Positions 15,001-21,000 of a stretch of 64,000 nt of DNA are shown here, in pieces. The stretch is from an uncultured Elusimicrobia bacterium. Its GTDB lineage: Bacteria; Elusimicrobiota; Elusimicrobia; 2-01-FULL-59-12. A program made the position numbers. The stretch covers positions 960,001-1,024,000 of the forward strand of contig OY969767.1 in the NCBI GenBank assembly GCA_963702895.1. Direction: 5' to 3'. Within the stretch, counting starts at the first letter, position 1. Every line of letters begins with the position of its first letter.

Positions 15001-18000
15001 TGGAGTCCCTGCTGGTGATAGGTCAGCTGGCCTTCGTGAATGATGAGCCCGGCGTCGACGACGCCTTTTTCCACCGCCTCCAGGATCCGGTCAAAGGGCA
15101 TCACGACACGCTCCACACGCCGTCCTTCTTCCGCCAGCCACAGGTCAAGAACGAGCGCGGCGGTGGTCCATTTTCCCGGAATGGCGATTCTCATGTCATC
15201 CCGGCGAAAGCCGGCCCTCCACACATCCGGCGGGCCGAGCGCCACGCACCAGACGCTCTCCGCCTGTCGTGTGGCGGAGGGTCGCCGGTCTTGTGGAGAC
15301 CCGGGATCCATCTTGATGGATCCCCCGCTTACGGCCGCGGGGGATGACGCCTTCTTATGGCCATTCGTCACTAAGATCGGCCCGTATCTCCTCCCCACGC
15401 TCGCACCGCAAGAGAGCACCCAGTAGCGGTCTGTCAAATGCGCGTAAGCGTGAGCGCTCACGGCTGTAATTTCAAATTCACCCTTCAAGGCATGTTCGTT
15501 CAAGGACTGAATATCTTCCAAATGATGCTTGATCACGTGTCCGGGTATCGTGACAGCGCCCGTCGCGAAGCCGTAAAACATGTAGGCATCGTCTGGATCA
15601 GGGCTGTGCGCGAACGTCAACAAGCGTCCGACGTGCGACGTGCGACGTCGGACGTAGGACCCGCCACACGGCTGGCGGGCGCCTGTTGTGTGGCGCCTTG
15701 GACGTCGGACGGCCATTTTGTTCACCAATTCTCCCTCCGGATTCGTGAAGCGGATACGCCCAAGCGGTCCAGCGTATGTTCCATATCTTTCACGAATTCA
15801 CTGGACCCACACAAATAAAACGTGCCTTCCAACATTTTCAAGTGTTTGCGCAATAAAATCTCGCCGATGCGGCCCGTTTCGCCCTCGATATCAAGATCCG
15901 TGGTTCGCGTAAACGTCGGAACATAATGAAACGTTGGGTTTTGGGTCCAGGCAAGAAATTGATCTTTGAAGATGAGATCCATCGGTGTTTTCACGCTATG
16001 AAACACCCACGATTCTGTTGCGGGGCTGGTGTCCAGGATATATTTGACCATGGCTCTGAAGGGGGTCACACCGCTGCCGCCGGCGAGGAAATAATAAGGG
16101 CCCTTGAGGACGTTCGGGAGCGCAAACGCCCCCAAGGGACCCGCGATTTCGACAGGGGATCCCTTCTTTAAGCGAAACAAGCTCTCATAGACGGCCGTGT
16201 CTTGGCCGGCCTTGATCGTGATGTCGAGATGGCCCTTTTCCGTAGGAGAGGAGGAAATGGAGTAAAACCTTTTCTTCGTGTCTCCTGGGATCTGAAGCGA
16301 AAGTGCTTGTCCTGCCTTAAAAGGGAAATAGGCACCCAAGCGGAAGGTCTGAATATCAGGTGTCTCCGGGAGAATATCAACGATGGGGACGGACAACACT
16401 ACTGACTTTGACACAAGACCACTCCGACCCCAAGAGGGATCAAGGCGCGCGCGCGGGGTGTTGGGGGTGGTACAGCGGCTCTCATGGCGAGAATTATACC
16501 TTTACGACAAAGGGGCCAGGGGTTGGCTATTGAAGCAGATCCCGTACTCAAAACCTTTCGATTTCTTCTTCGCCCAAACCACCCTTCCCGCTAAATCGAG
16601 AACGGGCTTGTCAGAAGGGACAAGTTGGAACCGGATGGCGCTTTTCGGCTTAAAGGGTTTTCGGCTGACCATGCGGGCGCCGAGCACGGAGAAATCAACA
16701 CATCTTGCTTCGGCCACGATCGCGTGGCCCTTGGCGTCATAGATATCGCAGGGGACCCGTGACGGGCTGCGTGGGGCCCTTCGTCGTTCATTGGTGACCT
16801 GCATGCCTATATTCTATCCCATTTCATCCGTAAAGAGTATGGAGCAGGAGGGCAATTGATGATGGGCCATTAGGCCTAGGATTCATTGGGAGGTGGGTTT
16901 GGCGGGAAATTCGCCTTTGAGCGCTTTCCAGCAGATGTCCACAAACTCCTGCGGGAACTTTCCGTCGGAAATGACCCATTCGACATAGTGGCGCTCTTTT
17001 TTAACGAGGTCTTTGAGGAGAACGCCCTTGTGTTTGCCGAAATTGATGGCAGCCTCGCCGTCTTTCCAGATCATCTTGCGACTGGAATCAACATAGCGCT
17101 CATCTTGCTTATGACAGTATTCGTGCAGGCTTTGGGTGTCCTGAGGGAGGTCCGGGTAATGCTGGAGTTGGGCGAGAAGCACCTCTTCGCTCGCCAGAGC
17201 ATCGGCTTTGGCGCCATGCGCTCCGACCAGAGTCTTTTGGCAGTAAAACTGATACGCAGCGGTCAGGTCCCTGGGCTCTTTGCGATGAAAGATGGTCAGC
17301 CCGTCCAAGATCGCCGGTTCTCCCTTGGGGAAAGGAAAGCCGCAGCGCTTAAATTCTTCAACCAAAATCGGGATGTCGAAGCGGCTGATGCCGAAGCCTG
17401 CGAAGTCGCAGCCGTCCATGAAATCCAGAAGCGAGATCGCGACCTCCTTAAAGGGCGGGGCCTGGGCGATGTCTTCGTTCGTGATACCGTGCACGGCGAT
17501 CACTTCCGCGCTGATGCGAACGCCAGGGTTGATTCTCAGGATCTTCTCTTCGCGCCGGCCATCCGGATGGGTTTTGATCAGGGCGAGCTCGACGACCTTG
17601 TCCCGCGTGGCGTCGGCGCCGGTGGCTTCAATATCCAGAAAGATGAGAGGGCGCGTGAACTTCACTGATCAACAGAAGCGAGCGCTTCGGCGTTGTTTTT
17701 GGACTTCTGCAAGAACTCCACGAAGATGGAAGCGGCTTGCACTTCTTCGATATCGGAGAGCGCGCGTCGGAGCTTGTACACCTTCTGAAGGTCGTCCGGG
17801 GGGATCAGCAGCTCTTCCTTGCGGGTACCCGAGGCGCGGACATTGATCGCGGGGAAAATGCGCTGCTCAGCCGCCGGACGCGAAAGAACGAGTTCCATGT
17901 TGCCGGTGCCTTTGAACTCCTGGAAAATCACGTCATCCATGCGGCTGCCGGTTTCCACGAGGATCGTGGCGAGGATCGTGAGGGACCCCCCTCCTCGATA

Positions 18001-21000
18001 TTGCGCGCCATGCCGAAGAAGCGTCTCGGGATCTCGAGCGCCCGGGAATCAAGTCCTCCACTCATGGTCTTGGTCCCAATGGTGTTGGAGTTATGTACCC
18101 GGGCCAGGCGCGTCAGAGAATCGAGAAGGATGACGACGTCATGTCCGGCGTTCGCCTCGCTGATGGCTTTCGACAGGAGATTTTGGGCCACACGGATGTG
18201 CTCTTCGTAAGGGCGGTCGTTCGAGGACGCATGGACTTCTCCCGGCACACTGCGTCGAAAATCCGTCACTTCTTCCGGTCGCTCATCAACGAGGAGGCAA
18301 TAAAGCTTGAGCTGGGGGTCACACTTGCCCAGCGCCTGGCACAGGTTCTTGAGAAACGTGGTTTTGCCGGCCTTCGGAGGTGACACGATGAGCCCGCGCT
18401 GGCCCTTCCCAATGGGGCAAATGAGATCCATGGCCCGCATCGTGAGCTCCGAAGACCCCTTTTCCAGTTCGAGTCTTGCTCGGGGGTCAATCGACGTCTT
18501 TGATAAAAAGGATTCTTCGTCGGGGCTTCGCGAAGGTGAACCGCGTCGGTCCGGCTGGCCAAAACGCCCCCCTCCCGGCCTGTGCGGCTCGCGATGCCAC
18601 GGCCGCCGGGGGTTATCCCTGTTGAAACGTTGTCGGAATGGTCTGTCCAAGGTGAGCGATATCGATTATAGCTTCTTTCTACCGCTATTCCTCACTTTCG
18701 AATCAAATCATCCAAAATGTTACTGAAGCTGCCCATGGAAGGCAGGGCTGAATCACGCCTTGGTTATTCGTCAAGCGATCCTCGCGAGCGGCCGGTTGCT
18801 TCCATGGTATCGGTGATGTCACTTTTCCAGTTCTCCATCTTGTAGTGGATCATGGCCAAGGCAATGATCAGACCCTGATAAAGACGGTTCACGTCTTGAA
18901 GGGACCGAATGGTCTTGAATTTCTTCCACCAGTAGGATGGGCGGAAATAGAACCTCCGATAAGCCCGTTTGACGGTATCCTGAAGCTCCCGAGCACTTTT
19001 ATAGCCGGTGGGGATGAAGATTGCTTCATTTTGAGTATTGCGGGAAGAGTCCTCATCAATCATCATGCCGTATTGTTTAGCCGTCGCATAGAGGTCGGTC
19101 CCTTTGTGTGGGGTGGTCAAGGTGAATTGCGCGTAATCAAGGTCCAGATCGATAGCGAAATTAATGGTGTTTTCCGCCGTTTCCGGGGTCTCTTCCGGCA
19201 AACCCAGCATAAAAAGCCCGCGAATTTCAATGCCCGCTTGCTGTGCTATTTTCGTGGCCCGCTGGGTGATCGTAGGAGAGAGTCCTTTGCGGATGGCATT
19301 GAGCGAATCCTGATTGGCGGATTCAAGGCCAAAGAATATTTCCCAGCACCCCCCCTCTTTCATTTTCCGGGCGAGGGATTCCGTGATGTCGTTGGCTCGG
19401 CCGAAACAGCTCCAGATGATGTCCAATTTCTCAGCGGCGATCCGGTCGCACACTTCCGTCAGCCAGGGGCGGTTCGCCGTAAAGGTGTCATCCCAGAAGG
19501 AGATTTCCCGCGCTCCAAATTTATCCATGAGATGTTTTATTTCCCTGACGACATTTTCCGGGCTACGAAACCGGACTTCCCGACCCCACGTGAACGGGGT
19601 ACAGCAGAATGAGCAGTTCCATGGGCAGCCACGGGTGACAAACATATGCACCACAGGGAGACGGCGGTATTGCACAGGGAAAGGGATGTATTTCTCCATC
19701 GGCAATAAATGGCGTGCCGGCAACGGAAGGTCGTCTAAATTAGCAAATTCGCGGGCCCCCGTATAATAGCCTGGTCCGCTGGATGCACGTGGGCGGTAGA
19801 CAATCCCTTTAATGGCAGCCGCTTCGTTGATATGCTCGAGCACTTGAGAGCGGTTGTAATCGTATTTCTTAAAAAAACTCATGAGTTCAACGATGGTTCG
19901 CTCTCCTTCACCGATGCAGGCAACATCAAACCAATCATGCTCATCCAGGAGACCGGCGGCAGGGCCCTGGGTGGCATGATGGTAACTGAGCGTCGGATGA
20001 GTTCCCCCCACCAGGGTGATGATCTCGGGGTACTTTTCACGGATAGCGCGGGCCATGGCCACGGATTTGTGGAAAGTGGGTGTTAAGGCATTCAGGCCGA
20101 TCACGCGAGGGCGCTTCTCTGCGATTCGTTCGAGGACGTCTTCTTCGCTTAGACCCAAAACCAGAGGTTCGACCAGGTCGACTTGGAATCCCTTCTCCAG
20201 TAAGGCGGCCGCCAAATAGGCCATACCCAGGGGCGGTAGGTGGCCGTATTTTTCATTGACGGCCTTTCCCCCAGCAGCTTCGCGCTTCGTCAGAGGTGGA
20301 AAGAAAAGGAGACAGTCGATCATGTGTGGGTGAGGTGTGGGAGAGTCTAACAGCCGATCTAGTGTGTGTCAACACTCGTGTCCGGTTAAAAATGCGAAAT
20401 CCCCCTGGTTCGGTAGAATGATTGCGACCAAGCAAACCATTCTGTCCGAGGGAGGATTTCGCTCATGCATTCTAACACCATAATGAACCAACTGCTTCTC
20501 CTTTTACCACGACATCAGTTCGACCAAGCCGTTTCTGGCTTCGGCGGCGACGCCTACGTTAAAAAATTCTCGACTTGGAACCAGCTCACGACACTCCTCT
20601 ATGCTCAGGCCAGCGGTAAAACAAGCCTGCGTGACATCCAGACGGCTTTAGGCACGCAACAACCCAAGCTCTATCACTTGGGGCTGCCGCCAGTGAAACG
20701 TTCTACCCTGGCTGACGCTAACGCTGGGCGCGACTGGCGCATCATGGAAAAGCTCTTCTATCACCTGCTGGATCGGTGCCAAGCCATCGCGCCTAAGCAT
20801 CAGTTCCGTTTTAAACACAAAGTGACCTGCTTCGATTCCACGAACATGGAACTGTGCCTGAACCTTTTCCCTTGGGCCACCTTTAAACAGGCCAAAGGAG
20901 CGATCAAACTGCATTGCCAACTGGACTTGCGTGGCCAAATCCCTTCCTTTGCCGTCATCACCGATGGAAAGTGCTTCGACCATGCCGCCAAACGTCTTTT

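Follow-up and report, generated by a model that had tools for sequence, protein, structure and literature searches.

The window analysed here, a 64,000-nucleotide stretch of contig OY969767.1 from an uncultured Elusimicrobia bacterium, carries on its minus strand a Rho paralog that occupies 18650..17662 in two frames, with 329 codons in total and a break at a run of six G (Table 1). An earlier note had placed a split Rho gene together with its exonuclease neighbour at 16883..18620; the frame break in a G-run stood, but the start is the TTG at 18650, 30 nt past the end given there. The overlap with an exonuclease gene, also noted earlier, was found again, the Rho stop overlapping the exonuclease start by 4 nt. 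Upstream, a radical-SAM gene ends at 18764. A canonical rho is located elsewhere in the same genome, and NusG is present.

Table 1. Features of the headless rho locus (positions within the window)
Feature	Position	Strand	Basis
Predicted TATAAT -10 promoter box, 14 nt before the TTG start	18665..18670	-	Conserved upstream box
Headless Rho, 5' part (tail, connector, Walker A, DERPEE, Walker B, Q-loop)	17988..18650	-	Profile match, pN/pS
Arg/Pro-rich disordered N-terminal tail, 43 aa, replacing Rho_N and OB fold	18522..18650	-	Composition, pLDDT
Walker A GKTT	18357..18368	-	From sequence; K and T invariant in 49/49 headless proteins
Frame-breaking run of six G (plus-strand C)	17986..17991	-	One base below the codon count of orthologs
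Headless Rho, 3' part (R-loop, EFKGTGN, arginine finger, C-terminal helices)	17662..17985	-	Corresponds to TIGR00767 positions 309-414
DEDDh 3'-5' exonuclease, DnaQ/ExoX-like (RNase_T and ExoX-like C-terminus)	16883..17665	-	PF00929, PF20600

Pfam searches matched PF00006 as the sole Rho domain in both halves of the gene. PF07497 and PF07498 remained unmatched at E<=10 in the intact ortholog from the same genus (L002), while a canonical Rho (L017) matches both, and Rho models align to the headless protein only from position 123-129 onward. A custom OB-fold model gave 0-0.7 bits with headless proteins, compared with 116-119 bits for canonical Rho and 28-70 bits for short Rho of the Group B type. 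The description of a motor-only second Rho with an Arg-rich peptide instead of the OB fold was therefore borne out: the motor is kept, and Rho_N and the OB fold are missing. All 120 of the homologs listed carry PF00006 without Rho_N or Rho_RNA_bind (around 115 of 120 in the earlier count). Against TIGR00767 the ortholog scored 371.7, below the cut-off of 509.45; it passes NF006886 (378, cut-off 315), and for this reason headless proteins are annotated as 'Rho'. No added partner-binding domain was seen in the headless protein. The tail holds 12 Arg and 8 Pro residues among its 43, with a net charge of +8, and is disordered in the model, with a pLDDT of ~47 in the predicted structure of the ortholog. 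The head was net positive in all 85 homologs that could be scored (85 of the 120, with a full start and a head of at least 15 aa), with a median of 38 aa; a long tail is not universal, as the heads of some members comprise just ~16-28 residues.

The headless gene also appears to have a promoter box of its own. In 11/11 family genomes the 230 nt before the motor start contain an exact TATAAT, against a genome background of 0.045 per kb per strand. Because the box stands so close to the start, there is no room for an upstream OB fold, and an OB fold hidden upstream or in another frame was ruled out by this spacing together with the end of the radical-SAM gene. The box escaped a generic promoter scan because that scan demands a -35 match.

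Walker A and B, the catalytic Glu, the Arg valve, the arginine finger and the Q- and R-loops are all retained, with an altered Q-loop stem. Residues K184, T185, E211, R212, D265, R269, K336, R353 and R366 (E. coli Rho numbering, taken from the alignment) are invariant in all 49 headless proteins, and Q-loop position 283 and R-loop position 326 are K or R in every one of them; D210 is replaced by N in 6/49. The predicted structure of the ortholog superposes on Rho with a TM score of 0.82 and an rmsd of 1.9 A. Compared with the same-genus ortholog, the 5' part has pN 0.058 and pS 0.73 and the 3' part pN 0.060 and pS 0.74. Judged from these comparisons, the catalytic and central-pore residues are under purifying selection. 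The Q-loop stem proline is found in 2/49 headless proteins versus 82 of the 104 scorable OB-bearing controls, the stem is one residue shorter in 33/49 and Y274 is replaced by H in 44/49. These changes are no proof of lost function, because OB-bearing PVC paralogs share them. Likewise, the substitution I382K, at what we take to be a NusG contact position, was rejected as a sign of lost NusG contact, as the position varies in OB-bearing controls.

An intact ortholog is present in 10/10 other genomes of the family, with open frames of 313-406 codons and 71-87% identity over the N-terminal 221 aa, and a second, canonical-type match was found in 7/10, both much as the earlier note had it. Its statement that the other genomes of the phylum have a single Rho did not hold, since 81 genomes of nine other families have a headless-type match. 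Headless Rho is class-wide in Elusimicrobiota, occurring in 87/401 sampled genomes from 10 families, including every genome of f7 (48/48), f5 (10/10) and f10 (8/8), and was not found in families f2 and f3 within this sample. Of the 87 carrier genomes, 82 showed either an OB domain or another Rho match (counted by match, not each confirmed as canonical), and a Rho RNA-binding domain was not found in 5 of 10 single-match genomes tested (73-99% complete). Headless Rho is ~52% identical to the resident Rho and falls into a separate deep clade of 36 rows in our tree, which rules out a recent duplication of the resident rho. The tree does not establish a single origin of all OB-less Rho proteins: it contains seven label changes, and several of the outlying rows look truncated. 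Of 16 viral loci found, 14 were checked and a single one carries the headless form of this clade; one headless copy lies among phage genes on a plasmid. A phage-borne family was rejected: IMG/VR yielded just one headless member, identical to the Spartinivicinus copy, and 15 phage records gave no headless-level match.

The frame break in this genome is most probably a homopolymer consensus error in the assembly. We found two frameshifts in 249 checked genes, the second in aroA, and an assembly error is indicated because both are G-runs one base short. Twelve further in-frame stops in the gene census were only apparent, 11 falling at the ends of alignments or ahead of the true start codons and the last in a shadow frame. 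That the copy is truly dead in this strain through recent G-run slippage, which would be compatible with any of the readings below, seems unlikely. In favour of decay, the assembly is otherwise clean, with two frameshifts despite 94 G/C runs of at least six in the span of these genes; the gene is dispensable at class level, being absent from our matches in f2 and f3; and no contig or read crosses 17986-17991, the nearest identical piece being 18000-18169. Against decay, there is no second lesion, both halves are under equal constraint, the frame is intact in 10/10 relatives and aroA, a housekeeping gene, shows the same shortfall of one G. The sequencing runs listed comprise three DNA runs of small share and no RNA run.

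The earlier view that nothing relevant is in print needs correction: Moreira 2024 (PMC11347177) already lists this architecture, as a 'Rho-like ATPase domain' group of 28 proteins (supplement and Table S3), and the novelty implied earlier is overstated for this reason. Moreira 2024 considers ATPase-only proteins 'not functional Rho factors' by definition, and gives no function and no test for them; marine gammaproteobacterial members have 314-327 aa, with the ATPase domain starting at residue 32-37, and the two Elusimicrobiota genomes sampled there yielded one Type 1 Rho and no ATPase-only member (PMC11347177). Our literature search found no paper on Rho or transcription termination in Elusimicrobiota and only PMC11347177 on ATPase-only Rho; PMC13613805 deals with a Rho_N-only family. 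Like the Moreira group, the headless proteins have the ATPase domain alone, lack both N-terminal domains and conserve the essential residues, and WP_163836858.1 from Spartinivicinus ruber, the one of the 28 proteins included in our tree, is 59% identical to the ortholog and falls into the same clade (98/97). The Elusimicrobiota form differs in being near-universal in several families and in its strongly Arg-rich tail. The locus thus adds range, a whole class of Elusimicrobiota, and a putative promoter to a class already catalogued, and no new system.

With canonical Rho (E. coli type, Type 1; TIGR00767, NF006886; PDB 1PV4, 3ICE, 5JJI) the headless proteins share the motor fold, Walker A/B, the catalytic Glu, the Arg valve and finger and the basic Q- and R-loop residues. 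They differ from it in lacking Rho_N and the OB fold, in failing TIGR00767, in forming a clade separate from the resident Rho and in a Q-loop stem without P279 that is mostly one residue shorter. Among the features that define a functional Rho in Moreira 2024, the ATPase domain is present, whereas the OB fold (PF07497), the helix bundle (PF07498) and a passing TIGR00767 score are missing. Group B/Type 4 short Rho (NF041509, paralog_Rho2) is likewise a second copy without Rho_N but retains the OB fold, which headless proteins do not, and the ortholog scores 326.6 against the NF041509 cut-off of 628, matching only from position 70. The motor substitutions H274, Q333, S231 and N/S232 are shared with PVC-group paralogs.

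Headless Rho has no folded primary RNA-binding domain. We propose, with a probability of about 0.5, that it is an old accessory motor of the Rho type, acting on RNA alongside canonical Rho and loading independently of rut-site recognition. The headless protein would form rings whose basic disordered tails catch RNA non-specifically; RNA would thread through the Q- and R-loops, ATP hydrolysis would drive translocation, and at sites without C-rich rut elements the ring might go on to free RNA polymerase or strip off RNA, NusG perhaps promoting ring closure. The retained motor residues and fold, the low pN on both sides of the break, the further Rho match or OB domain in 82/87 carriers and the presence of NusG favour this reading, as does published work on Rho. 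U12 RNA in the pore is reported to be enough for ring closure (PMC5449661), ATP hydrolysis on poly(C) to persist in the primary-site (PBS) mutant Y80C (PMC1950744), NusG to favour closure on C-less RNA (PMC7819879), Arg-rich insertions to increase RNA affinity (PMC11347177) and the disordered N-terminal domain of M. tuberculosis Rho to govern site choice (PMC13650167). On the other side, work on E. coli Rho judged the primary site and the Q-loop indispensable for releasing RNA and describes P279S/L and Y274D as termination-defective (PMC1950744). The altered Q-loop stem, the short heads of some members, the D210N replacements and the definition in Moreira 2024 also weigh against the proposal.

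In a bolder version, which we consider rather unlikely, headless Rho would be a rut-independent terminator or RNA translocase with full activity, six disordered Arg-rich tails replacing the crown of OB folds, and would substitute for canonical Rho in some lineages, for which the five single-match genomes without a Rho RNA-binding domain hit would be candidates. If true, it would overturn both the published verdict of a non-functional ATPase-only Rho and the view of the primary site as mandatory for RNA release. The OB-fold primary site of Rho is held to be necessary for loading and release, and a conserved natural clade without an OB fold is a ready test of that view: it could reveal whether a basic, disordered tail, or NusG by itself, is enough to load a Rho motor, and whether Rho forms mixed rings. 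The copy described here is a poor test object because of its frame break; the intact L002 ortholog or the cultured Spartinivicinus copy would serve better.

Such mixed rings are the basis of a similarly doubtful alternative, in which headless Rho is a modulating subunit that enters hexamers with canonical Rho and, by leaving each ring with fewer rut-binding clefts, tunes or damps Rho-dependent termination. Another Rho is nearly always present (82/87), the C-terminal domain, reported to carry hexamer cohesion (PMC12360218), is kept, mixed hexamers have been proposed for Group B short Rho (PMC11347177) and the copy among phage genes would also suit such a role. However, headless Rho shares only ~52% identity with the resident Rho and branches in a deep clade of its own, which would tend to weaken cross-assembly; a damper would not need every catalytic and pore residue to be conserved, and the single occurrence among 14 viral loci speaks against it.

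Less likely still is a motor repurposed outside termination, for example in RNP or R-loop remodelling or in feeding RNA to decay enzymes generally. Loss of the rut-reading domain and remodelling of the Q-loop stem would fit, as would the arrangement most often met in other families, where rne/rng-amidase-murI precedes the gene and a RidA-type gene follows it. Yet neighbours of headless Rho vary between families, the RNase E/G gene lies at a distance of three or more genes, in an order that resembles housekeeping synteny, and the protein lacks any visible partner-binding domain that might have been added for such a task.

Finally, the earlier note favoured a motor-nuclease pair rather than a terminator, in which the ring would feed nucleic acid to the overlapping DEDDh exonuclease. 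Within the family the exonuclease adjoins headless Rho in this genome and in 9/10 relatives, as noted before, with the contig of the tenth ending 16 nt past the stop, and the family pairs mostly have overlapping stop and start codons. Beyond the family, it lies within 3 kb of headless Rho in 2/2 loci of f6, and it was found in 30/37 genomes with headless Rho compared with 3/30 without. This co-occurrence favours a loose link but tracks family membership and so carries no independent weight. A dedicated helicase-nuclease module would have its partner linked across the range of the motor, whereas the exonuclease is adjacent in 0/37 loci from nine other families (within 3 kb in 2/37) and absent from nine further loci (L089-L097, some of them in genomes already counted) as well as from the Spartinivicinus locus. 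Each gene also occurs alone, the exonuclease in the three genomes above and headless Rho in 7/37 genomes in which the exonuclease was not found. A complex prediction with two ortholog subunits and the exonuclease scored 0.00 (mark 0.32) and is counted neither for nor against a pair. Because the exonuclease adjoins headless Rho in this family only, a dedicated pair is not supported and is the least probable of the readings; the exonuclease looks instead like a gene that became fixed beside headless Rho in the operon of this family alone. In sequence it is an unexceptional member of a widespread DnaQ/ExoX-like family and of a kind frequent in Bacteroidota, with matches to PF00929 (E 7.8e-17) and PF20600 (E 3.3e-5, below the PF20600 cut-off) and an Atlas score of 0.98 to Bacteroidota 3'-5' exonuclease clusters. 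PF00929 matches two proteins in the genome, this exonuclease and one that is presumably an oligoribonuclease.

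Headless Rho exists and is conserved, as the earlier note had held: between them, Rho models, Pfam, an OB model and AlphaFold2 find the motor kept and Rho_N and the OB fold absent. The Rho models aligned to the paralog from position 123-129 only, and the intact same-genus ortholog (locus L002) had no PF07497 or PF07498 match at E<=10. A custom OB model built from 26 Rho heads gave 116-119 bits with canonical Rho and 28-70 bits with divergent PVC paralogs, and 0-0.7 bits in 10 family orthologs, 37 other-family loci and the 120 top homologs. In the AlphaFold2 model (50-row alignment), the first 30-35 residues of the ortholog were disordered and the motor superposed on Rho (pLDDT 87.7, TM 0.82, rmsd 1.9 Å). 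The sole other Rho of the genome is canonical, lies ~300 kb away with 53% identity over the motor, and carries Rho_N, OB fold and ATPase in a domain search. Homologs with names assign the organism to Elusimicrobiota.

Features of the headless Rho locus (window coordinates)
Feature	Position	Strand	Remarks
Headless Rho frame	18650..17662	minus	TTG start at 18650; 329 codons in total
Frame break in headless Rho	17986-17991	minus	Run of six G
DEDDh exonuclease, 260 aa	17665..16883	minus	Start overlapped by the headless Rho stop

The start of headless Rho is fixed by an exact TATAAT lying just upstream in 11/11 family genomes (background, 0.045 per kb). Beyond the family only 4 of 39 loci show this box, as do 5 of 7 loci of canonical rho, which makes it an ordinary promoter box. 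Most family genomes also have a TCACC-like motif 7-8 nt after TATAAT, directly before the start (window 18651-18670); this pairing occurs at 1 of 247 TATAAT sites in the genome, and the mRNA would be near-leaderless with a TTG start.

Using the proteins of relatives as queries, we screened 249 genes (255 kb) of the assembly for frameshifts, headless Rho entering this census via its own ortholog. Two were found, in headless Rho and in an aroA-like gene, both in G-runs and each one base short; 12 apparent stops were dropped as alignment artefacts. The second site, at position 897502 of the contig (outside the window), is a run of seven G in a gene that we take to be aroA from its sequence. Because a single-contig assembly has an equal shortfall in a housekeeping gene, the break in headless Rho is very probably a homopolymer consensus error; alternatively, it may reflect recent slippage in the G-run. 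Among the contigs compared, none spans the break. Relative to L002, pN was 0.058 and 0.060 on either side of the break, with pS ~0.73; by this measure and by the residue conservation given below, the motor looks alive.

The earlier note had described a single Rho in the other 59 phylum genomes with a match, which is contradicted by 81 carriers outside the family. Among 401 genomes drawn from the phylum, a headless-type match (>=333 bits to the ortholog; next best, 317) was present in 87, all of one class and belonging to 10 families (f7, 48/48; f5, 10/10; f10, 8/8; f6, 2/2; f8, 3/4; f4, 5/9; f9, 3/5; f11, 1/1; f12, 1/1; f1 also positive), and was found in none of the 118 genomes of f2, the 47 of f3 or the other sampled classes. 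Loss of the OB fold was confirmed in 37 of the 81 outside carriers. By match alone, 77 of the 87 carriers have a further putative Rho. When eight of the 10 single-match genomes and two family genomes were checked, the OB domain was found in 5/10; no Rho RNA-binding domain was found in G157, G326, G293, G007 and G009, genomes that are fragmented and 73-99% complete.

Maximum-likelihood analysis of 88 motor domains, rooted at the midpoint for drawing only, placed 36 headless rows in one clade (98/97), separate from the canonical Rho of this genome. Besides every Elusimicrobiota copy sampled, the clade includes one copy from Omnitrophota and one from a Spartinivicinus ruber plasmid. Eleven further OB-less rows fall outside it and one long branch adjoins it, so the tree does not establish a single origin of all OB-less Rho. 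The Spartinivicinus ruber gene (L062:4908-5867, NZ_CP048880.1; IMG/VR locus L202) is carried by a phage-like plasmid, where it sits next to holin and terminase genes in the opposite orientation, and is the only viral copy of the clade found in IMG/VR. Another IMG/VR contig (132 kb) has a Rho-like frame of ~295 codons with no OB match and 47% identity to the ortholog (L199:2950-3834). Two genomes have a second copy of the 3' end of headless rho 1.5-2 kb further downstream (L036:2130-2438, L055:1608-2054), either through insertion targeting the gene end or through misassembly.

The group to which headless Rho belongs has been published: Moreira et al. (2024; PMC11347177) list 28 proteins with a 'Rho-like ATPase domain' and conserved essential residues, many of them 314-327 aa long and with an ATPase that begins at residue 32-37. 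The paper states, with no experiment, that these are not functional Rho factors, and its list has no Elusimicrobiota members. One listed protein, WP_163836858.1, falls in our headless clade. Since the two defining domains were tested for and are absent, headless Rho is not a functional Rho as defined, though it is Rho-motor-like in its predicted working. Our literature search found no paper on the function of the Elusimicrobiota protein. Second Rho copies in Opitutaceae and other PVC loci (L102-L162) have an OB fold that has decayed (it scores 28-44 bits with the custom model) and motor substitutions common to the headless clade; they are possible intermediates, and some published 'ATPase-only' entries from PVC taxa may be of this kind.

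In E. coli numbering, taken from the alignment, K184, T185, E211, R212, D265, R269, K336, R353 and R366 are invariant in 49/49 headless proteins, which also keep a basic residue at 283 and at 326. A subclade in f4 and f12 (L051-L055, L057; 6/49) reads INERPEE or VNERPEE, that is D210N, frequently with very short heads. The proline of the Q-loop stem is kept in 2/49 headless proteins versus 82/104 scorable OB-bearing controls, the stem is one residue shorter in 33/49, and Y274 is mostly H. These changes would speak against an E. coli-like mechanism; several are common to OB-bearing PVC paralogs. In E. coli Rho, the substitutions P279S/L and Y274D cause termination defects, and release was concluded to require the primary site (PMC1950744).

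We favour an accessory, rut-independent motor, at a probability of about one half. Headless Rho would form rings, capture RNA with its tail and translocate, with release to follow. By analogy, published data on other Rho proteins support these steps: U12 bound in the pore is enough for ring closure (PMC5449661), NusG helps the ring to close when the RNA is C-less (PMC7819879), Arg-rich (PMC11347177) and disordered (PMC13650167) additions aid RNA capture, and the C-terminal domain bears ring cohesion and translocation (PMC12360218). NusG and another Rho co-occur with headless Rho. A modulating subunit of mixed rings is an unlikely second reading; somewhat less likely still is a repurposed motor that does not terminate. 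Whether a Rho can act without its primary site is a real and testable question, raised earlier by others, for which the broken copy here is a poor test.

A dedicated motor-nuclease pair, as proposed in the earlier note, is improbable: the exonuclease adjoins headless Rho here and in 9/10 relatives (the tenth contig stops after the stop codon), but the proposed pairing is limited to this one family, with adjacency in 0/37 loci of nine other families and the exonuclease within 3 kb in two. There the commonest context is, in order, RNase E/G, amidase, glutamate racemase, the paralog and a RidA-type gene, and in several families the adjoining genes are unrelated. Genome-wide, the exonuclease occurs in 30/37 carriers versus 3/30 non-carriers (E<=1e-25), a contrast that favours some link but tracks family membership and has exceptions both ways. 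The exonuclease is a member of the common DnaQ/ExoX-like family and the sole DnaQ-like PF00929 match in the genome, aside from one gene that we take to be oligoribonuclease-like; we infer a housekeeping role in DNA metabolism.

Elsewhere in the window, a putative futalosine-type menaquinone gene cluster occupies 7261-15728, with a PF02621 match at 14652-15728. A short fragment at 13920-14331, with a weak B12-binding match (E 0.00094), looks like the remnant of a radical SAM gene, and 20465-21625 holds a transposase-like ORF, presumably of IS4 type.
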